Of a stretch of 64,000 bases of DNA, positions 20,334 through 36,276 are shown in pieces. Location of the stretch: contig JAYOSV010000019.1 in assembly GCA_038139415.1 (NCBI GenBank), positions 1,467 to 65,466 on the forward strand. The letters run 5' to 3'. Under the pieces are notes generated by a model, which was not told the DNA's origin, searched no databases, and saw only the letters and a list, made by a program, of their open reading frames with translations. Position numbers and translations under genes: made by a program. The stretch comes from Verrucomicrobiales bacterium (GTDB lineage: Bacteria > Verrucomicrobiota > Verrucomicrobiia > Limisphaerales > UBA1100). Within the stretch, counting starts at the first letter, position 1. Each line of letters begins with the position of its first letter.

Positions 20334-20908
20334 TGTCCGATCCGGTGTCCATCACCAGCCATGTGACGTCTGCCGATCGGGAACAACGCCATGGCCATCC
20401 CGGGCGCATAGTTTGGCTCACCGGCCTGAGTGGTGCCGGGAAAAGCACCCTCGCCATGGCGCTGGAGCAACGACTCTTTGATGCCGGCCGGAATGTCTAC
20501 GTACTCGATGGTGATATTGTGCGGGGCGGCTTGTGTTCGGATCTCGGCTTCTCGCCGGATGAACGGGCTGAAAACATCCGCCGCATTGGCGAAGTTGCCC
20601 GTATCATGGCAGATGCCGGGTTACTGGTGATTGTCGCGTTTATTTCCCCGTTCCGCGCCGATCGCGACCGGGTGCGCGCGGGCATGCCGGTCGGTCGGTT
20701 TACCGAAGTGCACGTGAGCACGCCGCTGGAGATCTGCGAACAACGCGACACCAAAGGCCTCTACGCTAAGGCTCGTGCAGGAGAACTCTCTGATTTCACC
20801 GGCATCTCCTCGCCCTACGAAGCGCCCGAATCCCCGGAAGTACGTCTGCCCACTGAGCAAATGAGCGTCAATGAATGCGTCGATAGCATTGTGGCTGTAT
20901 TGGCATAA
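20333..20908 (+). CDS. cysC: Adenylyl-sulfate kinase
   Basis: [35 protein letters not shown]. Confidence 0.95.
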
Positions 20909-20935
20909 AAAAACGGCGCGGAAAAACCGCGCCGT
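20907..20935. terminator. Hairpin terminator between convergent cysC and ahpC
   Basis: 9-bp stem acggcgcgg/ccgcgccgt (20913-20935) with an A-tract giving a U-tail on the minus strand. Confidence 0.75.
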
Positions 20936-20959
20936 GGTGATTCTGTTTTCGCTGAAGTG

Positions 20960-21586
20960 TTAGCCGTTCAGGGCCTCGTAGACGTTGCCGACCATGCCTT
21001 CGTTGGGGGTCAGCGTCTTTTCGCCCGGGGTCCATTTGGCAGGGCAGGCTTCGTCGGGGTTGGCGGCGCAGTGGACGTTTGCTTCCATCACGCGCACGAG
21101 TTCCTCCATGTTGCGGCCCACGTTGTAGAAGTTCACGGTGGCACTTACGAGTTTGCCTTCGGGGCTGATGACAAACGTGCCGCGCAAGGCGAGGCCGGTG
21201 GCATCATCGTATACGCCGAACAGGCTGGACACCACGCCGGTGGTGTCGGCGGCGAGCGTATATTTCACGTCGGTCATCAGCTTCTCTTCATTGCACCAGG
21301 CGAGATGGCTGAACTTGGTGTCGGTGGAAACCCCGATCACCTTGGCGCCGAGCTCGGTGAGCTTGGCATCCTGCGCGGCGAGATCGGCCAGCTCCGTGGG
21401 GCACACGAAGGTGAAATCCGCCGGGTAAAAAACCAGAATCGTCCATTTGCCGTCAGCCTTCAGATCGGCCAGGCTAACCTCCCCGAACTGACCCGTGCTG
21501 GGCTCGAACGTTTCCATTTTGAATTCCGGCACGGTCTCGCCCACGCCTACTGGCAGCATTTCGTCGTAGATTGTTTCGTCTGACAT
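20960..21586 (-). CDS. ahpC: 2-Cys peroxiredoxin (AhpC)
   Basis: FYPADFTFVCPTE, GRN, EACPAKW. Confidence 0.93.
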   Translation of the reverse strand: MSDETIYDEMLPVGVGETVPEFKMETFEPSTGQFGEVSLADLKADGKWTILVFYPADFTFVCPTELADLAAQDAKLTELGAKVIGVSTDTKFSHLAWCNEEKLMTDVKYTLAADTTGVVSSLFGVYDDATGLALRGTFVISPEGKLVSATVNFYNVGRNMEELVRVMEANVHCAANPDEACPAKWTPGEKTLTPNEGMVGNVYEALNG

Positions 21587-21660
21587 ATTTTCTTTGTGTT
21601 GAGGTTAAATCGGTGGCGATGGGATGCCTGAAGTGAGGGCTAATGTCAACCTTCGGCCGT

Positions 21661-23142
21661 TCAATCCTCCCAATCTTTCGCACGGCTCAGTGCCTTGTCC
21701 CAGCCAGCAACAAGCGTGCGACGCGTGGCGGGTTTCATCTGGGGAGCAAACCGGCGGTCCTGTTGCCATTGTTGGGCGATGTCGGTCTTGGATTGCCAGT
21801 AGCCGACAGCTAGGCCGGCGAGGTAGGCGGCGCCGAGGGCGGTGGTTTCGGTAACGCGCGGTCGCACGACCGGTACGTTGAGCAAATCGCTTTGGAACTG
21901 CATCAACAGATTGTTTGCGCTGGCACCTCCGTCCACGCGTAGTTCCTTGAGGCGAAGACCTGCGTCGGCCTCCATGGCCGCGAGCACATCACGCACCTGA
22001 TAGGCGATGCCTTCCAGCGCTGCGCGGGCAATGTGCGCCTTGGTGGCGCCGCGCGTGAGTCCGCAGAGGACGCCGCGCGCGTGTTGATCCCAATGCGGCG
22101 CGCCGAGCCCGGCAAAGGCGGGGACGAGATAGACGTCGCCGTTGTCTTTCACACTGGCGGCGAGCTTTTCGATTTCTTTGGCGTTCTTGAAAAAGCCGAG
22201 GCCATCCCGCAACCACTGTGTTACCGCACCGGCGATGAAGATGCTGCCTTCGAGTGCGAACTCCGTACGGCCACCGATGCGCCAAGCGACGGTGCTGAGC
22301 AAATTGTTTTTCGATACAATCGGCTTCGGGCCTGTTTGCATGAGCATGAAACAACCCGTGCCATAGGTGTTCTTCACCATGCCGGGGCGTGTGCAGCATT
22401 GGCCGAAGAGGGCGGCCTGTTGGTCGCCCGCAATGCCGGCAATGGGTATTCTGCTGCCAAGCAGATTGGTTTCGCCCAAGACTTCACTCGAGCCGCGCAC
22501 CTCGGGTAGCACGCTGCGAGGAACCTTGAATAGCTTCAGTAATTCGGCATCCCAATCGCCGGTGCGCAGATTGTACAGCATCGTGCGCGAGGCGTTGCTG
22601 GCATCAGTGACGTGCACGGTGCCGCCGGTGAGTTTCCAGATGAGCCAGGTGTCGATGGTGCCAAACGCCAGCCGGCCCTGCCGCGCCAAGGCGCGCGCGC
22701 CTTTAACATGCTTGAGCAGCCACGCAATTTTGGTGGCGGAAAAATAAGCGTCGATCACGAGACCCGTTTTGCGGCGGATGGCCGGGGCGTGGCCGGCCGC
22801 CTTGAGGCGGTCGCAGTCCTTGGCCGTGCGGCGGTCTTGCCAGACGATGGCATGGTGGATGGGTTTGCCCGTTTGGCGATCCCACAGCAATGTGGTCTCG
22901 CGCTGGTTAGTAATGCCGATGGCGGCGATCTGTTTGGCGGTCAGTTTGGCTTTGCGTAAGGCGGCTTTGGCGGTGGCTAGTTGGGTTTTCCAAATCGCCT
23001 CGGCATCATGCTCCACCCAGCCGGGCTTCGGAAAGATTTGTGGAAACTCTTTTTGCGCCACGGCTTTCACGCGCCCGGCGCGGTCAAAAACTATCGCTCG
23101 CGAACTAGTCGTGCCTTGGTCGAGTGCGAGAATATATTTCAT
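21661..23142 (-). CDS. glpK: Glycerol kinase
   Basis: [51 protein letters not shown]. Confidence 0.96.
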
Positions 23143-23918
23143 AACCAAAGCTCTTTATATGTCAGCGCGCCCAGGATACCGCCGGTGATGGGGCCGGCGA
23201 CGGGGATCCATGCGTAGCGCCAGTTGGAATCCCCCTTGCCGGCGATAGGCAGGAGCGCATGGACAATGCGCGGGCCAAGGTCGCGCGCGGGATTGATGGC
23301 ATAGCCGGTGGGGCCGCCGAGGCCCATGCCGATGACAAACACCAGCAGGCCTGCCAGTAGCGGTTTGAGGCTGTACGCCCATTGGTTTTGGATGACCTCG
23401 GCTTTCTTTTGGTGGACTACACCGATGGATTCGCGCACCTCCGGGGTTAGCGAGTCCGCGGAATAAATGGCGAGCAGGCCAAGCACGAGGACGAACGTGC
23501 CCATGGTTTCCGTGAGAAAATTGGCACCGGGCCGGTCAATGGCCGGGCCGGTGGAAAAGACGCCGAGCTTGGTTTTGGGATCGTCGGTGGCTTCCCAGTG
23601 CGGAAGAAAGGCCAGCCAAACGGCTATTGCACCGAGGATGGCTCCAGTAAACTGTCCGGCAATGTAGGCGGGCGCCTTGGCTGATTCCAATTCGCCGATG
23701 CTCACAAGCCCGAGCGTCACGGCGGGGTTGAGGTGGGCTCCGGAAAAATTGAAAACCGCATACGCGCCCATCGCCACGGCCATGCCCCAGCCGGCGGTGG
23801 TGAGAATCCAGCCCGAATCATGGCCGGTGGTTTTTTTTAGGGACACATTGGCATTCACACTTCCTCCTAATAGGATCAACAGAAAAGTGCCGATTAATTC
23901 CGCAGTAAAAATACTCAC
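23139..23918 (-). CDS. glpF: Glycerol uptake facilitator (MIP family)
   Basis: [10 protein letters not shown] and [16 protein letters not shown] boxes; overlaps the glpK start. Confidence 0.93.
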
Positions 23919-24017
23919 GGGCGCAGTGTAGGTTTAGGGCGAGTGACGAAAAGGAAAGATTGGTAACAGCTATGTGAACGCGTAATAATACTTACTATGT
24001 CTACACTTCTTTTTGAC

Positions 24018-26216
24018 TTAAAGCGTCTTTTTTTTAAGCAATTCAATAATTTGCTCATGTTCGCCATCATCGTATTTTGCCAATCCTTGCCAAGCCAATT
24101 CCAACGGAGTTTCTCCATCAGAGTTAGGGTGGATGGGATTGGCGCCAAAATGAATTAGGGTTTTTACTGGGGTTAACCTGCCTCGAAAAACCCATTTGTG
24201 AAGGGCTGTTTCCCAGTTTTTATTCATGGTATCCACCGGTAGTTCGGCTTCAATAAGGACTTCCATTACTGAAGAATCATCACAATTGTGTAGAGCTGAG
24301 TTCCCTGAATCATCACAGGCCATCACGTCTGCTCCTCGTTCGATAAGAAGACTGGCGATCGACGCCCTTTGGCAGCCGTGTAGGATCGGGTACCCGTGCT
24401 TGTCTTTGGCTTTTAGGTTTAGTTCGCCGCTATTTATTAAATCAAAAATGCGGTGACGGTCTGTGCCCATACGGATTTCATGGAACTCTTCCTCGGTGGG
24501 GGTAAGGCCTGATATAGGCTCGGGTTCCAGAGTTTCCGTTTGCGTGGGGGCAATCCGAGCGACCTGATCTGCTTCGACTTCGCGATCCTTAACTACTTTT
24601 AAACTGACGGTACAGCCCGCAGCTTCAAGATCGGTCTTAATATCCTCGGCAATCGCCGGATTATAGCCTTGCAAAAGTTGGTCCCGATCCGGCTTGAATT
24701 TTACTGCTTCGAGCACCTCGAAGGTGTTCAGGTTTGGCTTAAGCCGTCGCATGATTTGGGTAGCCTCATAAGTGTCTATGGGTAGTTCCTCAATAATAAC
24801 ACGTGTACCGGATTTCCATTGAACGGCAGGGGTAACGGGGGTGAGTGTTGTGGAAGCTACATCCGGTAATGTAGGTGGCAGTAATGGAAGTTCTGTTTGT
24901 GTGGGGTTGATAAGTTCCTGCAGGTTTTTTATGCGAACACGTTCAATGGCGTATTCTTCTTCAGTGTGATAGGGGCTCACAATGATTCGTTCCGCCGTGA
25001 TTTCTAACGAGTTCGGTTCAAAGAAAATGAGACCTTCTTCACCATTGTTCCTCGTGTAGATCAGTTTCTGACCTGAGGGATCGCCGATAATCTTTCGAGT
25101 CGGCTCGATGACAGGAGGAAGCTCTTCTTCCTCGGTTATTAAGGGGGCCGAGAGGACATCCGGATTGAGTATTCTCTCCCGTAGAATGGAAAATCGGGCT
25201 GTTGTGCCTGTGGCTTGGAGCGCTACATGTGAATCGGTGAGTTCTATCGAACCCGGATCAAAATAAATGACGCCACGATTGCCATTATTTCGGGTGTACA
25301 GCAATTCAGTCCCTGTGGAGTTCCCCACGATAAAGGCCTCAGGTTCCAAAACGGGCGGATTGGATTCTGCAGGGGAATGTTGTTCCTCAAGTGTTGGAGG
25401 TGATGGCTCTATTTCAGGCTCCTGACTCCTTAATACGTAACCACAATTCCAGCAGCGATATTCGCCTTCCCAGAGGCGGACGTTGCTGTCGTTGCAACTA
25501 GGGCAGGAATCTTTGTCTGGGGCTTGTAACGTCGGCTGTTGTGGTTCCGGGTCCTGAGCTTCAGGGTTTACGGTCGACGTGGTTTGAAAACCCAATACTT
25601 CGGGATTGCTAATCCGATCAAAATTAAGATTTTTACCTGCTTTAACTTTTAACAGCAGAACGTTGTTTCTAAATGAAAGACTAATCGAGTCAGGTCTAAC
25701 GCGTGTCTCTTTATTTTCTCCTTTAGAATTAGAATAACGAACGGTTACAGGCTCGTTGGAACGAGGTTGAATCCATTGTGTAATGTTCGTGTCAGGGTTT
25801 TTCCATTGATAGCTTGCGAGAACTGAATTGATCTCCTTGGCATTTGTTTGTGCAGTGATTTCCTCATCCGTATCTTTGCCAAACACCTTATGGACGATAT
25901 ACCCCGCAATGTTTCCGATAATGGACCACCCAATTATAGGGAAAATTGTGAGACTTTTATCTTCGATCATAGCCTCACGGTGCAACCATACACCGCAGAG
26001 GAATCCCAGGGCGGTACACATACTTTTTAGGTTGTCTCTTTTTGAAAAGGCTCTAGGAATATTCTGGAAAACCCAGCCCGCAATTCCTCCTGCAAACGCC
26101 CATCCAACTACTGACCCGAATGCCCAATCAGTTGAACTTCCTCCCATTACATCTGCATAACGGCCGCCGAACAATAGGCCATAAATAAAACCGATAAATG
26201 CCAGTCCAATGATCAT
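24018..26216 (-). CDS. Multidomain membrane protein: N-terminal TM helices, three WYL-like repeats, Zn ribbon, L7/L12-CTD-like domain, C-terminal ankyrin repeats
   Basis: Hydrophobic aa 1-110; VRYSNSKG..RVRP...FDRISNP, LLYTRNNG...DP...RERILNP and LIYTRNNG...EP...RVRIKN repeats; CPSC..CWNCGY; ...AEDIKTDLEAAGCTVSLK; ankyrin GNSALH, ETALH, GETPLELA. Confidence 0.75.
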   Translation of the reverse strand: MIIGLAFIGFIYGLLFGGRYADVMGGSSTDWAFGSVVGWAFAGGIAGWVFQNIPRAFSKRDNLKSMCTALGFLCGVWLHREAMIEDKSLTIFPIIGWSIIGNIAGYIVHKVFGKDTDEEITAQTNAKEINSVLASYQWKNPDTNITQWIQPRSNEPVTVRYSNSKGENKETRVRPDSISLSFRNNVLLLKVKAGKNLNFDRISNPEVLGFQTTSTVNPEAQDPEPQQPTLQAPDKDSCPSCNDSNVRLWEGEYRCWNCGYVLRSQEPEIEPSPPTLEEQHSPAESNPPVLEPEAFIVGNSTGTELLYTRNNGNRGVIYFDPGSIELTDSHVALQATGTTARFSILRERILNPDVLSAPLITEEEELPPVIEPTRKIIGDPSGQKLIYTRNNGEEGLIFFEPNSLEITAERIIVSPYHTEEEYAIERVRIKNLQELINPTQTELPLLPPTLPDVASTTLTPVTPAVQWKSGTRVIIEELPIDTYEATQIMRRLKPNLNTFEVLEAVKFKPDRDQLLQGYNPAIAEDIKTDLEAAGCTVSLKVVKDREVEADQVARIAPTQTETLEPEPISGLTPTEEEFHEIRMGTDRHRIFDLINSGELNLKAKDKHGYPILHGCQRASIASLLIERGADVMACDDSGNSALHNCDDSSVMEVLIEAELPVDTMNKNWETALHKWVFRGRLTPVKTLIHFGANPIHPNSDGETPLELAWQGLAKYDDGEHEQIIELLKKKTL

Positions 26217-26284
26217 CTGGATACTCTGGGATAATGCCTGATCAATTTCAGTATGTTAACTAAAAACAAAGTTGTTTTGGGCTG

Positions 26285-26965
26285 TTAATGCCGGCTGATT
26301 TGGCATTCGGCCGCTTCCAGTTTCTGCTGGAACGATTGGGCGGTGGCTTCTGGGAGATTCTCCGCGATGGTCTGTGGAGCATGTTTCAACATATCGTAAA
26401 TATCGAATGTACTCAGATCGGGCCTGATCTCCGCGATGATTTTCTTGATCCGATAATAGTTTGGGCCGGGATTGTTCAGCGTGATTGTATAGCCTTCATT
26501 TTTGAGGCTACGAGCCGGTTTGGGTGAACTCTCTCCCTCGATTTCATCAGCCTCGGGAAAAGGGAGGGGCTCAGGGATCGAATCCGCTTCAGTGTATCCG
26601 CACTCCCAGCAGCGCATTTCGCCATTCCATTCGCGCAGGAAGCCATCGCATGAAGGGCAACTTGCTTCATTTTCATTCAGGAAAGATTCTAATGTTGGCG
26701 GGACTGCAGCTTCCGATAATTGGTTGATTACTTTGGTTTTGCCTCCATCCATCATCGATTGAATTTTTTCGCCAATGCTTTGGCCGGCCCATCGAAAGAA
26801 GAGGATCGGGGCAACAAAGCCCATTACAATGATCGTGGGTTCTTGTTCTTTATTCCCGTTTTCGACTAAGGCTACCGCTACGATTAGTCCGCAGATGAAG
26901 CCCACGATGGACCCAATAAAGGTAAAAACTCTCTCGATAATAGGCTTTTTTTTAGAATCATCCAT
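26285..26965 (-). CDS. Two-TM membrane protein with Zn ribbon and C-terminal L7/L12-CTD-like domain
   Basis: Two hydrophobic helices; CPSCDG..CWECGY; YTITLNNPGPN...APQTIAENLPEATAQSFQQKLEAAECQI. Confidence 0.75.
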   Translation of the reverse strand: MDDSKKKPIIERVFTFIGSIVGFICGLIVAVALVENGNKEQEPTIIVMGFVAPILFFRWAGQSIGEKIQSMMDGGKTKVINQLSEAAVPPTLESFLNENEASCPSCDGFLREWNGEMRCWECGYTEADSIPEPLPFPEADEIEGESSPKPARSLKNEGYTITLNNPGPNYYRIKKIIAEIRPDLSTFDIYDMLKHAPQTIAENLPEATAQSFQQKLEAAECQISRH

Positions 26966-26982
26966 TCTATGGATTGGTCTCT

Positions 26983-28065
26983 CTATTTAATCTCCACGGT
27001 GCACCCAGCATCCTCTAGTCGTTTCTTGAATTGAGCAGCTGCATCCGGCTCGAGATTATCTGCGATGGTGTTCGGGAAATCACGCATCAATTGATAGGTA
27101 TCGAATGTCCCCAATTCCGGCCGGATTTCTTGGATGATTTTAGTGGCGTCATAGGTGCCGAGGCCGCAGCTGGTGATGATGAGAGAGACCTGGCCGGAAG
27201 TATTCGGTGCCGGTTCCTCGGCGACGGGTTGGGGCTCGTGCGGGGTGGCTGGTTCCTGCCCCGGAGTTTTTTCAAAGAGCGCTTCGGGATTGCCAATCCG
27301 GGTGCGTTTGAGCGTGATGTACTGAAAGGTCGGCGAGACGCGGACGCGGACAAAATCGCCCTTGTCATCCACCACGCCGGAAATGATTTTGAATTCCTTC
27401 TGCACCCCCTGCCAGTTGGTGTAGTGGATGATGGAGGTATCCGAAGTAGTGGTTTGAACCGGCAGCGGTTCCTTAGGTAACTGCGCCGGAGCCGCCACGC
27501 CCTTGAGGATGCGCGTCTTTGAACGGTTCAGTGAAATGCGCTTAAAGGTAGGTGCCACCCGTACGGAGAAGTGATTGCCTTTTCTCCTGATGGATTTGGG
27601 ATCACCAATGAATTGTTTCAGGTCGCCGGCGTAGTTGAGGTATTCGATGACAATTGTTTTGTCCGAAGAAGGCGGTTGATACGTTTTCTTTTTTTGGGGT
27701 GAGTTATCTGGGGAATCAGGAGTATTACTGGATGCTGCGGTTTGGTCGTTTTGGGTTATATCTACTTTAGCACCGGCCTGTGCCAGTATTTGTCTAGCCT
27801 CAAAAGCTTCTTCTTTGCTGACACCACTTAATAGTGTGCTGGGAGTTGATTCCACAAACTCTTTGGCCTCCTTTAGTCCAAATGAGGGTATTACAGCTCT
27901 TACTGCCTTGATGGATTGAACTTTATTCCCTCCATCTCCAATCAAAATAACTTCGTATGGGCCACTTTGTTTTTGGATGCGAGGAGCCTTTCGTTGTTGG
28001 CGAGGTGATGGTGGATTGGTTGCCTCGCCAAAGATCGATTTTTTTAATTCATCAAATAATCCCAT
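26983..28065 (-). CDS. Protein with two L7/L12-CTD-like domains flanking two WYL-like repeats
   Basis: YEVILIGDGGNKVQSIKAVRAV..FGLKEAKEFVESTP...GVSKEEA...LAQAGAKV is close to the bL12 CTD; IEYLNYAG.. and IHYTNWQG..RVSPTFQYITLKRTRI repeats; C-terminal ..AAQFKKRLEDAGCTVEIK. Confidence 0.8.
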   Translation of the reverse strand: MGLFDELKKSIFGEATNPPSPRQQRKAPRIQKQSGPYEVILIGDGGNKVQSIKAVRAVIPSFGLKEAKEFVESTPSTLLSGVSKEEAFEARQILAQAGAKVDITQNDQTAASSNTPDSPDNSPQKKKTYQPPSSDKTIVIEYLNYAGDLKQFIGDPKSIRRKGNHFSVRVAPTFKRISLNRSKTRILKGVAAPAQLPKEPLPVQTTTSDTSIIHYTNWQGVQKEFKIISGVVDDKGDFVRVRVSPTFQYITLKRTRIGNPEALFEKTPGQEPATPHEPQPVAEEPAPNTSGQVSLIITSCGLGTYDATKIIQEIRPELGTFDTYQLMRDFPNTIADNLEPDAAAQFKKRLEDAGCTVEIK

Positions 28066-28081
28066 AATGGTGCCTTTTTAT

Positions 28082-28397
28082 TTTGATCACGCAACAGCAA
28101 AGGCGACTTAGGTCTTGGACCGACTCCGATCTGGAGTCGTTCCATCGTCTCCAGATCGGAGTCGGTGGATTGCCCTGATTTACCGTAGGCTGGAGCGTTA
28201 ATTCGCTTCAGCGTCCATGATACATCATTGGAGTTCCACCGTCCCATGATGGATCATGGACGATGTCACTAATGCCGGTTAACACTTAGGCACTCTCCCT
28301 CACGAGTGTTGTTTGCCTGTGCTTCCCGGTACAGAGGGAATCGAGCCCGGTATGTTTCCGGGCCGATGGCAGCCGCCTCTGCTGCTGCGCGATCAAA
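28082..28397 (-). ncRNA. Putative RT-associated structured ncRNA (retron msr/msd-like layout) overlapping the RT 3' end
   Basis: 27-nt arms 28371-28397 and 28082-28108 pair fully on the minus strand (23 Watson-Crick + 4 G-U); internal hairpins at 28341-28366, 28323-28340, 28212-28262, 28189-28212 and 28119-28166. Confidence 0.7.
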
Positions 28398-29749
28398 TTT
28401 TTGTTTCGCATTTGGAAAAAGGACGATTCCAAATGGCCATGCTTTAAGAGTCGGCGTCGATGTTGCAGGCTAGGCAAGCCCATAGCCCGGAGACGGCCAA
28501 ATGGCAGTTTTCGGAAATTGCCTTTTTTATGACCATTCCTAAAAGTGACAGAAAGAATTTCTTCGGCTAACCAGCGATCTAATTCTCGGAGCTGTTTTTC
28601 GTCATTCACATGCTTTAGGTAGTAATCAATAACCGCCACGGATCGAAACGTCTCGTTGACCACATCCCGAGCAATATCGACTGCCAATTGCGCCCGGCCA
28701 TTTGCATGCCTTTGTTTACTAAATCGATGGCGTTTCCTGCGGAAAGCGTTCCGAAAGAGATTGCGAATCTTCCGTCCTTTTTCTCGAGCCATTCCCACTG
28801 ACTGGTCAGCCCGAAATTCCAGGCCGAGATGCTGGAATCGGTCGACCGCTTCAAACGCGCCATCCGTGTGGCCGGCGGTTTGTGGGAAGAAAAAATTGCG
28901 GTGAGCTTTGGGCTTGCTTTGTACGCGCAGGCAATCAAAGGCGTCTCCCATTAGTTCGGCTGCTTGCAGTGTGTTGGATCGGTCCGTCGAGAAGGCGAGG
29001 AGATCATCGGCGTACCGGAAATATTTCAGGCCCTTGATTTTGGTCAGTTGCCGGTCAAGCGGGGTTAGGTAGAGGTTGGCAAAGAAACAGGCGATTGCTG
29101 TTCCGAACGCGATCCCTCGGTTAGCGGTGTTTACGGTGAGGCCGTCTTCCTGCAGTACTTCGAACTGGATGCGTTGGCGGAGCAATTTAAATAGGTAATC
29201 ATTCGGCTCGACCCAATCGGCCAGCAGAGTGAGTAGACGTTCGTGATTGATACTCGGGAAATAATCGGCCACATCGCGTTTCACGAAATATAACGGCCGT
29301 GGTAATTGGCGGATGTGCTGCTCGACCCGGTGCTGGCAGCTATCTACCCCGTGGCTACCCATGCGATAAGCAAAACAGCTTTGCTCATACACACTGTGAA
29401 AATATTTGGTGAGCTCCCGGTAGAGCATGAGATCCACAATCCGCTCCTCCCACGGATAGAGATAAATGGTGCGGTCCTTGCCGTTGGTGTTGAAGTGCAG
29501 CTCAATGCCGGGCCGGTAAACAAATTCTCCCCGTGCCAGTTGCCGATGCAGTTGGGCGGTGTTTTGTAGGGAATCGGCCGCGAAATCGTATAGCGTGCGT
29601 CCGTCGTGCGAGCGGCCCAGCGCCTTGCGCCAGGTAAAGAGCGGCTTGGAGTAGGCGCGGATCACTGCCTGATGCAGGGCTAGCTCCGAATAAATTCGGT
29701 CAAACGTGGCCTTTGGGTGTGTGGCCGGTAATGCACAAGACAGATTCAT
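28286..29749 (-). CDS. Stand-alone reverse transcriptase, group II intron-like (not part of an intron)
   Basis: RT motifs: GKDRTIYLYPWEERIV, SCFAYR, VKRDVADYFPSINHERL, GIAFGTAIACFFANLYLTPLD, YFRYADD, FQHLGLEF; basic thumb-like C-terminus; no HNH or Cas1 domain seen. Confidence 0.92.
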   Translation of the reverse strand: MNLSCALPATHPKATFDRIYSELALHQAVIRAYSKPLFTWRKALGRSHDGRTLYDFAADSLQNTAQLHRQLARGEFVYRPGIELHFNTNGKDRTIYLYPWEERIVDLMLYRELTKYFHSVYEQSCFAYRMGSHGVDSCQHRVEQHIRQLPRPLYFVKRDVADYFPSINHERLLTLLADWVEPNDYLFKLLRQRIQFEVLQEDGLTVNTANRGIAFGTAIACFFANLYLTPLDRQLTKIKGLKYFRYADDLLAFSTDRSNTLQAAELMGDAFDCLRVQSKPKAHRNFFFPQTAGHTDGAFEAVDRFQHLGLEFRADQSVGMAREKGRKIRNLFRNAFRRKRHRFSKQRHANGRAQLAVDIARDVVNETFRSVAVIDYYLKHVNDEKQLRELDRWLAEEILSVTFRNGHKKGNFRKLPFGRLRAMGLPSLQHRRRLLKHGHLESSFFQMRNKNLIAQQQRRLPSARKHTGLDSLCTGKHRQTTLVRESA

Positions 29750-29874
29750 CCCGTTTCACGGGCGCGCAGGGTGTAAGCAGATTACCCGTTGGCGGGCAAA
29801 GGGAAATCCTGAGTTGTTCACCAGAAATTGACGATCCCTCATCGGCCCCGTATCATTGGCCCGTGCCAGAAACT

Positions 29875-30804
29875 ATGCCCATTGATGCCTTGTCCCGCGA
29901 GATTGCCGAGCTGAAAGAGCGGCTGAACGCGGTGATTCTTGTGCATAACTATCAGGTGCCGGAGATTCAGGATATTGGCGATTACGTGGGAGATTCGCTG
30001 GGGCTCTCGCAGCAGGCGGCTGAAACCGATGCGGATGTGATCGTGTTCTGCGGCGTGCATTTCATGGCCGAGACCGCCAAGATTCTGTCGCCCAACAAGA
30101 CGGTGATTCTGCCCGATCGCGATGCCGGCTGTTCACTGGAGGAAAGCTGTCCGCCCGACAAACTACGCGAATTGCAGGCGACCAACCCGAATTTTTTTAC
30201 GGTCACCTATATTAACTGCAGTGCCGAAGTAAAGGCGCTCTCCGATGTCATTTGCACTAGCGGCAATGCGAAGAAAATTGTGGAGCAATGTCCGCCGGAC
30301 AAGGATCTCCTCTTTGTGCCGGACGAAAATCTCGGGCAATGGGTGATGGAACAAACCGGCCGGCCGATGACCCTCTGGCAAGGCAACTGTTATGTGCACG
30401 TGGAGTGGACACACGCCGCGATCACCAAGATCCGAGACGAATATCCCGACGCCCCGCTGGTCGCCCATCCCGAATGCACGAAGGCTGTTCAGATCCTTGC
30501 GGACGAAGTCTGCTCCACTGAAAAGATGGTGCACTACTGCCGCACCGTGGAAAGTGATTCGGTGATCATTGCCACCGAGGCCGGCATGTTGCACCGGTTG
30601 CAAAAAGAGTGCCCTGATAAAAAATTCATTCCTGCCCCGACTGAAAAATGCGCCTGCAACGAGTGTCACTTCATGAAAATGAACACGCTCGAAAAAGTCC
30701 GCGACTGCATGCGCGATTTGACGCCGCAAGTGGAGCTCTCGCCCGAGATCCTCGAGCGCGCCAAACTCCCCATCGAGCGCATGCTCGAATGGACAGCGCG
30801 GTAG
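29875..30804 (+). CDS. nadA: Quinolinate synthase
   Basis: ILVHNYQ, GDSLGLS, FCGVHFMAETAKIL, AGCSL, YINCSA, AHPEC, C..MKMNTL; start ATG 29875 (or GTG 29863). Confidence 0.95.
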   Translation: MPIDALSREIAELKERLNAVILVHNYQVPEIQDIGDYVGDSLGLSQQAAETDADVIVFCGVHFMAETAKILSPNKTVILPDRDAGCSLEESCPPDKLRELQATNPNFFTVTYINCSAEVKALSDVICTSGNAKKIVEQCPPDKDLLFVPDENLGQWVMEQTGRPMTLWQGNCYVHVEWTHAAITKIRDEYPDAPLVAHPECTKAVQILADEVCSTEKMVHYCRTVESDSVIIATEAGMLHRLQKECPDKKFIPAPTEKCACNECHFMKMNTLEKVRDCMRDLTPQVELSPEILERAKLPIERMLEWTAR

Positions 30805-31043
30805 CGTTTGTATTTGTTTGCATTGCTCCTTGTCTCGTTTATCTCATCTGCCGCCGAACGATTGCCGCGACTTGACCTGTTGAATTTTCTCGATTCCGAG
30901 GGCATAGTGGCAGGGATGGTGCCGTTACCGGGTAAGGAGCGGCGCTTGGGTTTGGCCGTGCAGGTGGAGGAGGAAGTGGATGCTGGCAAATACATCCACC
31001 ACCGACCTCGGGTCAAGCAACCGAGATTAGGATTTAGTAAACT

Positions 31044-31493
31044 ATGGCAAAGCCCGAACCTGACCCGATTGATCCGAATGAACTGCCGACCTTAGCGCAG
31101 GCAACCATGGCGGATGCGAAATTTCCCATGCTGGCGAGCCTCGACGGCGATCAGCCGCGGCTCCGTCCTGTTTCTCCTGTGAAGACCGACGGCTTCACCG
31201 TGTACGTCGCCAACCTCAAGGCCTACCACAAAACGCAGGAGATTGCCGCCAACCCGAAAGTGGAATTATGCTACATGGACAGCCGACACGATCAGGTGCG
31301 CATCACCGGCCGCGCTGAAGTGTTGGACGACGCTGACGCGGTTCAATCCATCTGGGACAGTAACCCGCTCCTCCGCCAATACCTCGGCACCCCGGACAAC
31401 CCCATGCTGATCATCTACAAGGTCATCCCCGAGCAAGTCCGTTTCATGCGCGAATGGGCGTTGGAATATCATGAGGTAGACTTGAATTTGTAG
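31044..31493 (+). CDS. Pyridoxamine 5'-phosphate oxidase-like FMN-binding protein
   Basis: LASLDGDQPRLRPV, KTQEIAANPKVELCY, QVRITGRAE split-barrel motifs. Confidence 0.8.
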   Translation: MAKPEPDPIDPNELPTLAQATMADAKFPMLASLDGDQPRLRPVSPVKTDGFTVYVANLKAYHKTQEIAANPKVELCYMDSRHDQVRITGRAEVLDDADAVQSIWDSNPLLRQYLGTPDNPMLIIYKVIPEQVRFMREWALEYHEVDLNL

Positions 31494-31540
31494 ACATGAG
31501 GTTGGCTCTCATGTCTCTCGTATGAGGCTTTAAGAAAAAA

Positions 31541-31616
31541 TGGAGCCAGATACCCGACTTGAACGGGTGACCTGCAGGTTACAAAACTGCTGCTCTACCA
31601 ACTGAGCTAATCTGGC
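31541..31616 (-). tRNA. tRNA-Thr(UGU)
   Basis: Reverse complement GCCAGATTAGCTCAGTTGGTAGAGCAGCAGTTTTGTAACCTGCAGGTCACCCGTTCAAGTCGGGTATCTGGCTCCA folds as a cloverleaf with anticodon TGT and encoded CCA. Confidence 0.95.
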
Positions 31617-31675
31617 CCGAAGGCCGGGAGACTAATGCAGATTCAAATATTTGTCGAGACCTGAGCCGGGTGAAG

Positions 31676-32656
31676 TCAACCAAACCAGCCGGATTTTGCG
31701 CCGCTGCGTTTTTGGAGCAGTTCGCTGCGGGAGGCTTCGAGAGTGAGAATCATTTCGTCGTAGTCGCGGAAGCGCTTTTCCGGATCTTTATTCATAGCGC
31801 GGAGGATGGCGCCTTCCGTATTGGCACTGATGTCGCGGACGATTTTGCGCGGTGGGGTGATACGTGTTTTCACGTGCGCCCAAACGGTTTCCTCAACGGT
31901 GTTGCCGTTGAAGGGGACCTGACCCGTGAGGGCGTGGTAGAGGGTGGCGCCCAGGGAATACATGTCTGACCGGAAATCCTGCACGCCGCGGGCCACGCGT
32001 TCGGGGGCGATATAAAAAGGGGTGCCGACTAGACCTTCGGCGGAACGGGGTTCATTGATTTTGCGGGCGATGCCGAAGTCGGTTAGCTTGGGTTCGCCAT
32101 CGACGTTGTAGAGAATGTTGTCGGGCTTGAGGTCGAGATGGATGAGATCTTTTTTGCGGACTAGCTCTAGGGCGCCGGCGATTTTGATGCCGGCATCAAG
32201 CACATAGAGTTCATCCACCCGCCCGTTTTTCTGGATCAACCCATCGAGGTCCCCGCGGTCGGCTACTTCCATGACTAGGTATTTGTAACCTTTGAATTGG
32301 CCGTAGTTGTAGACCTGCACGATGTTGGTGTGGTTCAGCGAAGCCTGATATTGGGCTTCGCGGAAAAAACCGGCCATGGCGTTGGTGTCGCCGGTGAATT
32401 CCGGTTGCATCAGCTTGACGGCTACGTCGCGATCTAGAATCTCGTCGTGGGCGCGATAGACTGTGGCCATGCCGCCTGAACCACACACCGCGCGCAGTTC
32501 AAACTGATCCAGCTTCACGGGGGTCATCACCGCGTGGCCGCAATTACTGCAGTTGGAATGCTGAAACATGCCCAGATTAGCCGGAATAAACGTACTCGTG
32601 CCACAGCGTTCGCATGGTACGCGTTTCACAGCTCGATTGGGGGGCGGAGTGCTCAT
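31676..32656 (-). CDS. Hanks-type Ser/Thr protein kinase with N-terminal Zn ribbon
   Basis: GSGGMATVY, VAVK, HLDLKPDN, DFG, GTPFYIAPE, SDMYSLG; CERC..CSNC. Confidence 0.9.
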   Translation of the reverse strand: MSTPPPNRAVKRVPCERCGTSTFIPANLGMFQHSNCSNCGHAVMTPVKLDQFELRAVCGSGGMATVYRAHDEILDRDVAVKLMQPEFTGDTNAMAGFFREAQYQASLNHTNIVQVYNYGQFKGYKYLVMEVADRGDLDGLIQKNGRVDELYVLDAGIKIAGALELVRKKDLIHLDLKPDNILYNVDGEPKLTDFGIARKINEPRSAEGLVGTPFYIAPERVARGVQDFRSDMYSLGATLYHALTGQVPFNGNTVEETVWAHVKTRITPPRKIVRDISANTEGAILRAMNKDPEKRFRDYDEMILTLEASRSELLQKRSGAKSGWFG

Positions 32657-32806
32657 CCTTAAATACGGTGGATCGTTTTGCCCGAAGAGTGGGCTCGAAT
32701 CAATCCTGAATTCATGCGGTTCGCTCGCGATTTGGTTTGAATCAACGGTTGCTTTTTGATAGTAAACAAGCTCTGGAACGCGCTTTAGTCGCGGGCCACT
32801 GCGCGC

Positions 32807-34600
32807 ATGAAAAACCCATTAAACTGGCTGGGCTGGCTTGGGCTGATGTTCCTGCTGGCGGGGACGACCGGATTGAGCGGAGCAGACGTTTCCGAAGCCG
32901 CTGGGAACACAACCGAATCCGCCTTACTCCCGGGGCATGCCGAGCCTCACAGTGAGACGCATGGCGAAGACCACGCCCACCATCACGGCGTGGAAGGCCA
33001 AGGTCTGAGCGTATTGTGGGTGATTCCTTTTGCCGGCATGCTGTTATCCATCGCCTTGGGGCCCATTTTGGCACCACATTTTTGGCATGCGAACTACGGC
33101 AAAGTTGCGGCCGGCTGGATCGTCCTATTTTCGATTCCGTTTTTGGCCACTTACAAGGGCGATGCGTTTTACGAAATCCTGCATATCGTGCTGCTGGATT
33201 ATGTGCCGTTTATCATTCTATTGGGGGCGCTCTTCACGGCGGCCGGCGGGATTTGCCTGAAAGGCAGCCTGCGCGGTTCGCCAACGGTGAACACGGCGAT
33301 TCTTTTTATCGGCACGGTGCTGGCCAGCTGGATGGGGACGACGGGCGCGGCGATGCTGCTCATTCGGCCGATTCTACGGGCAAACGCCTGGCGTAAAAAT
33401 AAGGTGCACGTGGTCGTGTTCTTTATTTTTCTGGTGGCCAATATTGGCGGTTCATTGACTCCGCTGGGGGATCCTCCCTTGTTCCTCGGTTTTCTTAAGG
33501 GTGTAGACTTTTTTTGGACTATGAAACTCCTGCCGGTAATGACACCGGTTGCACTCTTTCTGTTAGCGGTATTTTTCATCTTCGATACCATCATGTTCAA
33601 GAAGGAAGGTCCGGCCCCAGATGATGGTGAGAAAGTGCCGCTGAAACTGGAAGGCACAATCAACTTCGCCCTGATCGGCTGTATCATTGGGGCAATTCTA
33701 CTGTCCACTTGGCTGGGGAAAAACAAGTTTACTGATTCGTCTGTGGGCGAAAAGATGAAGCCGGCTATTGAAGCGGCAGTGTTTGAGATGAAGGAGGCGA
33801 AAGCGGATCTGAGTAATTATGTGGAAACGAATGCAGATGCGACTTTTGATGAATCCAATCAGGAATATCACCAGAAACGCGTGACTCATCTCGATGCCGT
33901 TTCCGCAGTGAACCAATTGCGGGCAAAGAAGACCCACGATGAAACGATGGGGCTGCATGTGTTTGGTGTGACGGTGTCGTTTTCCAATCTGGTTCGTGAT
34001 GGGTTGTTGATTTTGATCGCGTTGCTCAGCCTAAAGCTGACGCCGATGTACAGGACAGTGAAGGATGAACACGGACATGAGGTAGCGGCTGAAGGCGAGG
34101 AGAAATCGAATGTGCGCGCGGCTAATGGCTTCACATGGGAGCCGATCCTCGAGGTGGCCAAGCTCTTCATCGCGATATTCATCTGCATGATTCCGGCGTT
34201 AAAAATTCTCCAGGCCGGTGTGAATGGCGGCTTGTCCAGTGTGGTGTTGGCGGTGCAAAGCAGTACGAATGATCCTGTAAACATGATGTATTTCTGGCTC
34301 ACCGGCATCCTGTCCAGTTTCCTGGATAACGCCCCGACGTACGTGGTGTTCTTCAACACTGCCGGCGGCGATCCCACTTCGTTGATGGGGCCGTTGGGGC
34401 AGACGCTGTTGGCGATTAGCTGTGGCGCGGTGTTCATGGGAGCTGTCACCTACATTGGCAACGCGCCTAACTTCATGGTGAAAGCCATTGCAGAGGAGAA
34501 TGGGGTTAAAATGCCGAGTTTCTTTGGCTACATGGCTTGGAGCGTGGCGATCCTGATCCCGACCTTTATCATCGTGACCCTGATCTATTTCCGGAGCTAA
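32807..34600 (+). CDS. Putative Na+/H+ antiporter (ion transporter superfamily)
   Basis: GTTGAAMLL, ANIGGSLTPLGDPPLFLG, SSFLDNAPTY, YIGNAPNFMVK; His-rich N-terminus. Confidence 0.85.
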   Translation: MKNPLNWLGWLGLMFLLAGTTGLSGADVSEAAGNTTESALLPGHAEPHSETHGEDHAHHHGVEGQGLSVLWVIPFAGMLLSIALGPILAPHFWHANYGKVAAGWIVLFSIPFLATYKGDAFYEILHIVLLDYVPFIILLGALFTAAGGICLKGSLRGSPTVNTAILFIGTVLASWMGTTGAAMLLIRPILRANAWRKNKVHVVVFFIFLVANIGGSLTPLGDPPLFLGFLKGVDFFWTMKLLPVMTPVALFLLAVFFIFDTIMFKKEGPAPDDGEKVPLKLEGTINFALIGCIIGAILLSTWLGKNKFTDSSVGEKMKPAIEAAVFEMKEAKADLSNYVETNADATFDESNQEYHQKRVTHLDAVSAVNQLRAKKTHDETMGLHVFGVTVSFSNLVRDGLLILIALLSLKLTPMYRTVKDEHGHEVAAEGEEKSNVRAANGFTWEPILEVAKLFIAIFICMIPALKILQAGVNGGLSSVVLAVQSSTNDPVNMMYFWLTGILSSFLDNAPTYVVFFNTAGGDPTSLMGPLGQTLLAISCGAVFMGAVTYIGNAPNFMVKAIAEENGVKMPSFFGYMAWSVAILIPTFIIVTLIYFRS

Positions 34601-34653
34601 CACAGTAGCAAATCTCGACCGGCTTCAGGGTTTGTGGCAGAAAAGTCCGGCGC

Positions 34654-35946
34654 ATGCGGCTGCTTTACAACATTTTATTTCCCGTTCTATTTCTGCTGGC
34701 AGCGCCGTTTTATTGCTGGAAACTCGTGCGGCGAGGGAATTGGCGCGTGGGCTTCGCGCAACGGTTTGGGGCGTATGGTGAGCTGACGGAGCAATTGAAA
34801 AATCAGCGCGTGATTTGGCTGCATGCGGTGTCTGTCGGCGAAGCCAATCTGGCCGTGCAACTGGTGGAGCGTTTGCAGGCTGCCGATTCGGAGTCAGTTT
34901 ATGTGGTTTCCACCACAACGACCACCGGCATGGGCGTATTGCAGCGGCGTTTGCAGGCGGGAGTGAACGCAGTTTATTACCCGATCGATTGGCTGCCATT
35001 TGTGAAACGGGCCTTCAAGGCATTGAACCCGGCGGCAGTCGTGCTGGTGGAGGCAGAGATTTGGCCGAATTTATTTTGGGAAGCCGAGACGCGTTCGGTG
35101 CCGATGACTCTGGTCAACGCGCGGCTTTCGGAGCGGTCGTTCCGTGGGTATCAACGGTTTGGGTTGCTCTTCCGCCCATTGTTTCAGTCCCTGTGCGCGG
35201 CGGGCGTGCATCACGAGGCGGATGCGCGCCGATTGGAATCATTGGGCACACGGCCGGAAGTCATTAGCGTGACGGGAAACCTGAAGTTTGATGGCGCTCC
35301 GGGCGGAATCTTATCGGGCTGTGATGCGCGCGGGATTCTGCATCAGCTGAATGTGCCGGCTGCGGCACCGGTGTTGGTGGCCGGTAGTACTTTTGAAGGA
35401 GAGGAATTGTTGATGGCGGAATTGTTGCCGCGCTGGCGCGCGGTGGCGCCGGATTTATTTTTGGTGATTGTCCCGCGCCATTTTGAACGGGGCGCTGCAG
35501 TGCAAGAGCAGTTGCGATCAGCCGGATGGAAAGTGGCCCGCCGAACAGAGCTGGACAAGGCTCCGTCCCAGCCTGATGTTTTGCTGGTGGATAGCACCGG
35601 CGAATTGACGGCCTTTTATGAAATGGCGACGTTGGTGTTTGTGGGTAAAAGCCTGACGGCGCAAGGCGGACAGAATCCGATCGAGCCGGCGGCCTTGGGA
35701 CGGTCGATGGTGTTCGGGCCGTTTATGCAGAACTTTCGGGCGGTGGTGCGCGAACTGCTCCAAGCCGAGGCAGCTCGGCAGGTTCAGGATGAAGCGGAAT
35801 TGGCCGAAACAGTGGGGTTTTTACTGGAAAACCCCACCGAACGAGAGGCGTTAGGGAAGGCGGCTAAGAGTGTGGTGGAGGCAAACAAAGGCGCCACGCA
35901 GCGGACGGCCGATATGCTCGGGCAATCGCTACGGGCGTTGAATTAA
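34654..35946 (+). CDS. waaA: 3-deoxy-D-manno-octulosonic acid transferase
   Basis: IWLHAVSVGE, EAEIWPN, NARLSERS, GNLKFD, VPRHFER, GGQNPIEPA. Confidence 0.93.
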   Translation: MRLLYNILFPVLFLLAAPFYCWKLVRRGNWRVGFAQRFGAYGELTEQLKNQRVIWLHAVSVGEANLAVQLVERLQAADSESVYVVSTTTTTGMGVLQRRLQAGVNAVYYPIDWLPFVKRAFKALNPAAVVLVEAEIWPNLFWEAETRSVPMTLVNARLSERSFRGYQRFGLLFRPLFQSLCAAGVHHEADARRLESLGTRPEVISVTGNLKFDGAPGGILSGCDARGILHQLNVPAAAPVLVAGSTFEGEELLMAELLPRWRAVAPDLFLVIVPRHFERGAAVQEQLRSAGWKVARRTELDKAPSQPDVLLVDSTGELTAFYEMATLVFVGKSLTAQGGQNPIEPAALGRSMVFGPFMQNFRAVVRELLQAEAARQVQDEAELAETVGFLLENPTEREALGKAAKSVVEANKGATQRTADMLGQSLRALN

Positions 35947-35958
35947 CTGAATGGCGCC

Positions 35959-36276
35959 CTAGTGGGCTTGGTCAGGATCGGGCTTTTTCTTCAGGAGCTT
36001 TTTCACCTGATCGCGTTTGCCCTCCTGCATCATCCGCCACATTTGAATGACTCGCTCGTGGGTTATGTTCCGGCCAACCACGCGCGTGTCGTAGTTGAGT
36101 TCATAAAACTCCACGAAGCCATTCTCATAGACGTCCAATTTCCATCCTTCGTCGTCTTTCAGGGTTATGTTCAGATACTCAGTTCCTGGCGTCTCGAGTT
36201 CCTCGAGTACGGATAAAACCTCGCCAGTGCTGGGATCCTTGAACTCCACCTCTTGTTTCTTGAGGTATGTCGTCAT
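35959..36276 (-). CDS. Hypothetical protein
   Basis: 105-aa ORF preceded by a GGAGGTG Shine-Dalgarno; fills the intergenic space. Confidence 0.65.
   Translation of the reverse strand: MTTYLKKQEVEFKDPSTGEVLSVLEELETPGTEYLNITLKDDEGWKLDVYENGFVEFYELNYDTRVVGRNITHERVIQMWRMMQEGKRDQVKKLLKKKPDPDQAH

Follow-up and report, generated by a model that had tools for sequence, protein, structure and literature searches.

Twin hairpins at a Verrucomicrobiales reverse transcriptase locus: probable enlargement of one arm of a conserved RNA linked to a UG26-like enzyme

Bacterial systems that combine a reverse transcriptase (RT) with a noncoding RNA (ncRNA), namely retrons, DRT2, DRT3, DRT9, and DRT10, have each revealed a new mode of DNA writing, and several have become tools. 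Class 2 UG RTs are described as templating from exposed ncRNA motifs beside a stem (10.1101/2025.10.16.682844; 10.64898/2026.04.29.721553), and the second of these predicts the same initiation and templating for further class 2 members. UG26 RTs are sometimes encoded beside a YcjD-like endonuclease, and the accessible part of that account reports no ncRNA for them (Mestre et al., 2022, PMC9226505). Here we set beside these systems an RT locus from a Verrucomicrobiales bacterium, contained in a stretch of 64,000 nucleotides (nt) that we call the window (GenBank assembly GCA_038139415.1, contig JAYOSV010000019.1, positions 1,467 to 65,466). An earlier reading of this DNA from its letters alone (the sequence-only reading) had drawn attention to twin long hairpins, A and C, next to the RT gene. 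We are confident of what these hairpins are in structural terms. The full interpretation, in which they are a lineage-specific enlargement of the P4 arm in a conserved structured RNA that partners the RT, we regard as probable. The conserved RNA is apparently undescribed, and the hairpins point to a new relative of the bacterial RT-plus-RNA systems.

The RT gene and the parts of the RNA are located in the window as follows (bp, base pairs; aa, amino acids; ORF, open reading frame).

28286..29749, minus strand: reverse transcriptase gene, 487 aa, with a YADD active-site motif (ORF list).
28080..28398, minus strand: the whole predicted structured RNA (fold -167.8 kcal/mol, z -13.5; family-wide conservation).
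28372..28398, minus strand: 5' strand of the closing stem, within the RT codons for ..LIAQQQRRL.., forming 27 bp with 28080-28107 by manual pairing of the letters.
28080..28107, minus strand: 3' strand of the closing stem, the tail of the RNA (duplex folding, family covariation, and the window fold).
28344..28364, minus strand: P0 hairpin (columns 80-86/113-119 of a 53-locus alignment, and the window fold).
28275..28340, minus strand: pseudoknot core, with P1 at 28334-28340/28295-28301, P3 at 28326-28329/28275-28278, and P2 at 28314-28318/28288-28292.
28261..28272, minus strand: junction motif at the ancestral AT.GAA place, degenerate here (AGTGAC) and placed by model alignment.
28212..28262, minus strand: hairpin C, 28212-28232/28242-28262, a stem of 21 positions, two of them mismatched (28222/28252 and 28229/28245), and a 9-nt loop.
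28189..28212, strand not assigned: hairpin B, a variable linker hairpin of 9 bp (28189-28197/28204-28212) that is not conserved.
28119..28166, minus strand: hairpin A, a perfect 18-bp stem (28119-28136/28149-28166) with a 12-nt loop.

Direct reading of the letters bore out the sequence-only description of the two long hairpins: the perfect 18-bp stem and 12-nt loop of A, the 21-bp stem with two mismatches and the 9-nt loop of C, the motif GTTCCA(T/C)CG common to both loops on the plus strand, and the palindromes within the arms at 28121-28139 and 28244-28259, both of which are exact. The intergenic stretch that contains them (220 nt, 28066-28285) lies between two minus-strand genes, those for the 487-aa RT and a 360-aa protein, and its fold has a z-score of -6.7 on the minus strand and -7.2 on the plus strand; none of 200 shuffles folded as well. 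Rather than standing alone between the genes, the hairpins form the middle of an RNA of about 320 nt that starts inside the RT frame. On the minus strand the elements follow one another as closing stem, P0, pseudoknot core, junction motif, C, B, A, a short linker, and the tail. The last ~37 RT codons double as the 5' part of this RNA, and the pseudoknot core spans the RT stop codon. The positions of the core helices in the window come from manual alignment to a 56-locus consensus and from covariance-model alignment.

The comparison behind this placement was made across the RT family. More than 1000 relatives of the RT were found at E <= 1e-10, many of them with 47-65% identity, in metagenomes, marine Verrucomicrobiales, and soil, with some Planctomycetota by source labels. 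Their distribution is patchy: among 401 genomes of the phylum only the window's own has a full-length match, and the other 400, considered for comparison, were set aside with only distant RT-domain matches (E 1e-11 to 1e-18). We gathered five loci from genome records (metagenome-assembled genomes of marine Verrucomicrobiales, 94-95% identity) and 80 from metagenomes (45-97% identity). One conserved nucleotide pattern surrounds the RT stop codon in all lineages examined (85 loci). The anchor motif of this pattern was found in 75 distinct loci and the window, and the RNA core is present in every locus long enough to contain it. The remaining loci lack the anchor (L058, L075, and L121, of which L075 shows the pattern by eye), are too short past it (L012, L063, and L120), or are duplicates (L047, L105, L112, and L115).

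Covariation was assessed in an alignment, A3, of 56 loci outside the window clade. A3 leaves out the ten sequences of that clade, L050 and L051 (long P4), L049, L052, L053, and L054 (whose anchors were corrected for later closing-stem folding), L087 (a deletion), L092, and L091 and L096 (contigs that end soon after the anchor). Four helices were identified: P1 (8 bp), P3 (4 bp), P2 (6 bp), and P4 (11 bp). Their strands run in the order P1-5', P3-5', P2-5', P1-3', P2-3', P3-3', so that P1 crosses P2 and P3 and the core is therefore a pseudoknot. The structure is paired in 94.3% of 1588 cells, against 45-53% in slid controls, and 22 of its 29 pairs show change on both sides. None of 500 shuffles reached the observed pairing, compensatory counts, or covariation score; five reached the count of further pair types. 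A candidate helix P5 (GGGC with GTCC in the tail) was paired in 95% of cells, no better than in shuffles, and was dropped in favor of P3. Between P3 and P4, directly 5' of P4, the hexamer AT.GAA is invariant in all 56 distant loci apart from its free third position. P4 itself is short in most family members, only 7-11 bp at the site of the window's long hairpins.

The closing stem emerged from 53 distant loci (A3 minus the near-duplicates L062, L072, and L107), for which RNAalifold gave 16 pairs, 15 of them compensatory, together with hairpin P0. This stem joins the 3' tail to RT codons ~110 nt ahead of the core, and folding of duplexes locus by locus recovered it, at 14-27 bp and in different sequences, in the marine and intermediate lineages. 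In these alignments, all helices of the family RNA covary. Selection also acts at the level of the RNA. Identical nucleotides fall in different reading frames from locus to locus (GAAGCA, a hexamer present in both, is divided as G, AAG, CA in the window and as GAA, GCA in L111), and the RT stop codon drifts along the conserved nucleotides, falling before, inside, or well past the core. In one soil sub-clade (e.g., L057 and L066) the RT frame runs on through the whole RNA core, and an extra small hairpin with a GCAA-type loop is inserted in the loop of P2 (A3 columns 55-72).

In the window, a 327-nt element folds on the minus strand with -167.8 kcal/mol (z -13.5), a value that 0 of 100 shuffles equaled; the corresponding plus-strand fold has -161.6 kcal/mol (z -9.3). 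The closing stem is unbroken in the minus-strand fold and interrupted in the plus-strand fold. It includes four G-U pairs that become A-C mismatches on the plus strand, so the stem is valid only in RNA of the RT sense. A helix that RNAalifold proposed for the window clade, pairing the 5' strand of P2 with the tail over a long range, was rejected, as the closing stem with far-upstream RT codons is the better explanation; the two may compete. The sequence-only reading had used hairpin B to point to the plus strand as the would-be cDNA strand. That hairpin does have 9 bp and a single G-T on the plus strand, which is an A-C mismatch on the minus strand, but the argument about strand fails because hairpin B is not conserved in relatives within the clade.

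A covariance model, R1, was built from A3 with nested helices only and without the window clade. It gave one significant match in the window, at 28211-28363 on the minus strand (41.9 bits, E 4e-10), in which the self-folded 5' arm of hairpin C is aligned as P4, right after the junction motif. No second match was found in a search of the whole window genome. Outside the model, R1 matched 22 of 25 loci, always at the RT 3' end and on the RT strand, and the three that it missed (L058, L063, and L121) are contigs that end before the RT stop. That the hairpins belong to the RT, as the sequence-only reading supposed, is supported. In one soil locus (L087:5396-5500) a deletion joins the RNA just after P3 to the partner gene; this apparently decayed copy still scores 84 bits with R1. 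Seven viral contigs (L125-L131, 56-364 kb) encode RTs of like architecture at 33-37% identity, and that of L129, also 487 aa, has the same C-terminal motif block.

The hairpins themselves were followed in an alignment, A2, of ten window-clade sequences from marine Verrucomicrobiales. The long stems of A and C are paired in 97.9% of cells, and 15 of 38 pairs are compensatory (11 of 18 in hairpin C and 4 of 20 in hairpin A), a level reached by 0 of 500 shuffles. These stems covary while the loop motif is kept, which is the outcome that the sequence-only reading had asked about. In the RNA sense, the loop of hairpin C contains CGGTGGAA, invariant in ten of ten members, and that of hairpin A reads CGAT.GAACG in all ten, its free position being G in nine and T in L056. 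The variable letter is exactly the position that is free family-wide. Both loops of the window clade therefore hold copies of the motif, and the junction motif at the ancestral AT.GAA place has decayed to AGTGAA or AGTGAC. Where the family has its short P4, the window clade has hairpin C, linker B, and hairpin A. The two mismatches of hairpin C are specific to the window assembly, since all three RNA-library contigs that cover 28222 and 28229, and relatives such as L044, differ there; with the letters of L044 or of contig X17 the stem is perfect. P4 has been enlarged independently in L050, L051, and L052, to a single long hairpin of 17-22 bp with a loop that lacks the motif (L050:1829-1960).

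Long G+C-rich hairpins between two genes of the same strand could also be a repeat of the repetitive extragenic palindromic (REP) or miniature inverted-repeat transposable element (MITE) type, or an intrinsic terminator. The data already contradict this explanation, which we give next to no chance. A BLAST search of the 220 nt against the 3.2-Mb assembly (90.7% complete) returned one full copy, and beyond it only the element's own inverted arm and matches of 14-30 nt (E >= 0.6); together with the single covariance-model match, this disposes of the multi-copy family that the sequence-only reading had held against itself. A terminator scan of 27800-28700 detected no terminator-like site at hairpin A or C, and neither is followed by a T-run. 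The hairpins are conserved along with the RT, not scattered.

The self-palindromic arms form a pattern, a-b-a'-loop-a-b'-a', that returns with different sequences in relatives. The half-sites of hairpin C differ among the window, L009, L056, and L048, and the window and L048 also disagree in the "a" half-site of hairpin A. Of 16 individual arms tested, nine have perfect half-sites of 7-8 bp that no more than 17 of 5000 shuffles equaled; the remaining seven were unremarkable. When the four arm hairpins were counted by columns, 88.2% of cells were paired, against 26-42% in slid controls. The long P4 of L051 and L052 shows the pattern in a weaker form, with arms that are partly self-palindromic. 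Taken singly, every arm of A and C resembles the P4 hairpin. If a hairpin a-b-a' were duplicated in inverted orientation, the product would be exactly a-b-a' followed by a-b'-a', and the arms can therefore be read as copies of a module. We propose that they arose by inverted duplication of the motif-plus-P4 module, which would account for their palindromy; of the steps that we infer, this is the one in which we have most confidence.

The same palindromes might instead be two-fold symmetric sites (on double-stranded RNA, or on a duplex of RNA-DNA or DNA) at which a dimeric protein binds, for instance one of the clade's three accessory proteins, with the loops secondary. The return of the arm pattern in different sequences (in L009, L056, L048, and the window) and the extra accessory proteins of the window clade are in keeping with such sites. 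Half-sites are wholly different between L048 and the window, however, whereas the beta-domain stretches of the accessory proteins are alike, which argues against sequence-specific reading. Palindromy would also follow automatically from inverted duplication of a hairpin, and the arm hairpins covary weakly. We consider symmetric protein sites very unlikely. The idea that the arms switch folds holds in principle, as they are able to self-fold. Both folds are encoded, but the long-hairpin fold is predicted to be far more stable and is the one clearly under selection in the alignments; the compensated pairs include the central b:b' pairs, which are present only in that fold.

Sequence from RNA libraries gives a hint of expression. 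Six runs contained about one-fifth of the sampled words of 27800-28600, and four of these, from four studies, were compared.

28094..28377, no strand: span of the short RNA-library contigs from three studies.

Three runs yielded one short contig each, all coincident with the predicted RNA, at 28109-28375 (270 nt), 28094-28377 (290 nt), and 28102-28373 (236 nt, interrupted at hairpin A); the fourth had cover on the downstream gene only. Some parts upstream of 28393 lack RNA cover. In the closing stem the contig ends face each other, a pattern compatible with cleavage there. Word depth is 7-90 in the element contigs and 0-2.8 in the flanks, a hint only, as such depths cannot rank parts of a gene. 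Contig X18 skips 28131-28172, most of hairpin A, and has three other letters instead; with its shorter side of 29 nt, it may be a relative's sequence or an assembly artifact, or else a natural variant lacking hairpin A.

Opposed ends within the closing stem would also suit a cis-regulatory element of the messenger RNA, acting on the processing, stability, or translation of the RT and downstream genes (through RT autoregulation or as an RNase III site) with no DNA synthesis. The overlap with the end of the RT frame points the same way, in that folding and translation would be mutually exclusive on one molecule. Against this, a pseudoknot and an invariant unpaired hexamer that persist down to ~45% RT identity exceed the needs of a processing site, no terminator-like site occurs at the hairpins, and the nearest RT relatives of known biology employ partner ncRNAs. 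A purely cis-regulatory role is in our estimation unlikely.

The RT matches RVT_1 of Pfam (E 1.3e-15). Its best PADLOC profile is RT_UG26 (6.7e-37, profile positions 67-390 of 398), for which PADLOC supplies no cut-off; a generic RT profile (PDLC01136), Cas1_IIIb, Drt9 (2.2e-26), UG17 (2.6e-26), and UG4 come next. RT_UG26 is the top profile for all 19 sampled family members, at ~125 bits and E of 1e-37 to 1e-39 (best 1.1e-39). In NCBIfam, the group II RT/maturase model covers the RT nearly end to end with 90.8 bits against a cut-off of 300, and retron_St85_RT reaches 58.8 bits against a cut-off of 235, with other retron models lower. A profile of the 19 members found 9ioa/9nlv as the closest solved chain (E 2.8e-19), and a literature search tied 9NLV, 9NLX, and 9VKU to papers on DRT9. 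By these profile matches, we call the RT UG26-like and probably related to the class 2 UG/Abi enzymes, yet unplaced. An Rfam 15 E-value search of 20000-36000 returned only a tRNA, with no intron RNA domains, as a group II intron would have, and no known RNA family. No direct repeat of at least 25 nt links the RNA region to a neighboring gene in 24000-29800, as in a diversity-generating retroelement; the repeat search there gave just two weak, chance-like families. The tRNA gene (31544-31616, minus strand, 64.2 bits) lies ~1.8 kb from the RT start.

In the alternative nearest to the sequence-only reading, that of a retron, the long hairpins would be an msd-like template copied into a stable hairpin complementary DNA (cDNA) that serves as ligand or decoy, with the closing stem as a1/a2. 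Retron msd stems are fast-evolving and near-perfect. The window's long hairpins have both properties, the RNA is bracketed by a long closing inverted repeat, the RT has weak matches to retron models, and the RNA libraries could contain DNA. The retron model falls far below its curated cut-off, however, and PADLOC UG profiles outscore retron profiles; the RNA is found at the RT gene's 3' end and not ahead of the gene; and most family members have only the 7-11-bp P4, because of which a hairpin template cannot be the family-wide mechanism. We think a retron-like function improbable.

Almost every locus encodes a single small protein after the RNA, ~130-180 aa long, with a MGLLDFL-type N terminus, a four-cysteine zinc ribbon, an IRYRNFxG-type beta domain, and a helical C terminus. 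We gathered 59 distinct partner proteins and aligned 45 (alignment A4). Nothing in Pfam scored above cut-off in any of the eight tested; an EACC1 match in one of them (E 0.00082, under cut-off) was judged spurious in light of PMC7159879. The AlphaFold model of the partner has a mean pLDDT (predicted local distance difference test score) of 81, with values over 90 starting at residue 71. In this model the beta domain is similar to small barrels of the Sm/SH3-like kind. The best Foldseek matches are PafBC and BrxR (WYL-domain proteins; E 0.014-0.02), and VIA-align scored PafBC, CapW, BrxR, and DriD at Z 3.5-4.2 and a small barrel unrelated to them at Z 5.2. A WYL-like partner is thus a weak lead from the model. 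Three genes follow the RNA in the window.

26983..28065, minus strand: first downstream gene, 360 aa, with an MGLFD N terminus, two L7/L12 C-terminal-type domains, and the family's small beta domain twice.
26285..26965, minus strand: second downstream gene, 226 aa, with, by eye, an N-terminal hydrophobic segment and a four-cysteine zinc-ribbon-like motif.
24018..26216, minus strand: third downstream gene, 732 aa, with ankyrin repeats and, by eye, hydrophobic N-terminal segments, a four-cysteine motif, and beta-domain-type repeats.

The 360-aa protein matches PF00542 at 3.2e-27, and the 226-aa protein has a weak match of the L12 C-terminal type (PF00542 at 0.00062, under cut-off). The 732-aa protein shows an L7/L12-like stretch by eye. 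In the window clade, the three proteins reuse the beta domain and zinc ribbon and add L7/L12 C-terminal-type domains, membrane segments, and ankyrin repeats; soil relatives have a single small partner protein without L7/L12 domains. As speculation, the copies of the L7/L12-type domain, which contacts translation GTPases, might act as decoys. Farther downstream, the window (23139-23918) and L051 (L051:8401-9171; RT ~63% identical) have a glpF-like channel gene, followed in the window by a glycerol kinase gene (21661-23148). This common neighbor suggests long vertical residence in the marine lineage, not recent transfer.

For the partner RNA with an enlarged P4 arm, we propose the following mechanism. 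An RT-sense transcript would fold, and cleavage within the closing stem would leave a stable RNA of ~280 nt; this step ranks second in our confidence after the inverted duplication. The RT would bind this RNA through its core. The motif, beside or atop a stable stem, would be the start or template site for the RT, as in DRT9 and DRT10, and the small zinc-ribbon/beta-barrel partner would read the product. The assignment of the motif is the step of which we are least confident; by analogy with these systems, the motif as start or template site together with a partner that reads the product is a tentative proposal. A more elaborate version, which we rate a long shot, envisages a new RT-RNA machine with an RNA subunit cut from the RT's own message and with AUNGAA as a short template or start site. 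In the marine clade, the a-b-a'-loop-a-b'-a' hairpins would contribute a stable stem and, flanking the motif, 7-nt direct repeats with a spacing of 25-29 nt (a...a). The RT would jump back between these to make a tandem-repeat cDNA that folds into hairpins, and the zinc-ribbon/WYL-like partner and L7/L12-type decoys would couple this product to a block of translation.

Several points weigh against the interpretation as a partner RNA with an enlarged P4. Every functional step (cDNA, RT-RNA binding, and phenotype) is drawn by analogy. Placement of the RT in class 2 UG is not secure, the RT_UG26 scores being modest and the group II RT model running nearly end to end. By eye in A3, no consistent A-B-A' repeats surround AT.GAA across the family, unlike in DRT10; 8-nt-spaced repeats in the window's two loops are suggestive of such a template pattern, which was rejected as it is lost in relatives. 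Templates of DRT10 are much less conserved than this motif, which would fit a site of protein or tertiary contact equally well. The arm self-hairpins covary little: only 3 of 28 pairs are compensatory, and the 88.2% pairing compares with 86.3% in shuffles, so the palindromy appears to be maintained mostly through conserved letters. The RNA-library contigs carry no strand, true ends, or reliable depth, and such libraries can hold DNA; a genuine X18 contig would make hairpin A dispensable. No obvious defense island surrounds the locus, and no defense genes were recognized adjacent to it in the ORF list or by PADLOC. Finally, R1 gave no match at the RT 3' ends of the viral relatives, two weak matches in L131 being upstream and on the opposite strand; this null result is not evidence that the RNA is absent there.

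The finding is larger than the hairpins. It concerns an uncharacterized RT family whose RNA is well defined, combining a pseudoknot with an invariant hexamer, and which comes with a small partner protein that is itself new. No description of an RNA for this UG26-like family was found in the literature searched, the available portion of PMC9226505 being silent on a UG26 ncRNA, and a term search of the accessible text of an artificial-intelligence survey preprint found mention of neither these taxa nor these features. Because the RNA extends into the RT frame, much of it would escape surveys that go gene by gene through intergenic sequence. The hairpins also offer a natural experiment, in which the same core occurs with one or several copies of the motif.

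Non-long-terminal-repeat retrotransposon RTs such as that of R2 recognize elements in the 3' untranslated region (UTR), a structured pseudoknot RNA at the 3' end of their own message. The window RNA is likewise structured, contains a pseudoknot, and lies at the 3' end of the RT message; it differs from R2-type 3' UTR elements in being single-copy, with neighbors kept (the glpF-like gene in the window and L051) and no endonuclease domain found. Like it, retron msr-msd RNAs have a closing inverted repeat and stem-loops within, and their long hairpins evolve fast. Unlike retrons, the locus has an RT below the curated cut-offs and a reversed gene order, and no branching-G context was identified in it.

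UG26 provides the best profile for all 19 members over nearly its whole length, though with modest scores, and the neighbors in the window are zinc-ribbon/beta-barrel proteins instead of the endonuclease sometimes seen with UG26 (PMC9226505). DRT10 (UG17) has a class 2 UG RT, and RT_UG17 matches the window RT at 2.6e-26. It differs in that no SLATT family was among the Pfam, PADLOC, or NCBIfam matches of the four-gene window locus, in its poorly conserved template loops where the window family's motif is invariant and lacks consistent A-B-A' repeats, and in the position of its ncRNA. DRT9 (UG28) has the closest solved RT, and the window RT, of ~490 aa, has no extra known domain; DRT9 also works with a structured ncRNA, in which a conserved motif is exposed. 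Its ncRNA lies upstream of the RT and carries a U-tract motif, whereas the window RNA overlaps the RT 3' end and has a pseudoknot and AT.GAA, and the PADLOC Drt9 profile gives merely 2.2e-26 on the window RT. A conserved structured RNA beside the RT, the feature of class 2 RT-ncRNA systems, is present here, in a position that differs from those in DRT2, DRT9, and DRT10. On sequence comparison, the system appears to resemble an RT-plus-ncRNA module of the DRT9/DRT10 kind that differs in the position of its RNA, its pseudoknot core, its motif, and its partner proteins.

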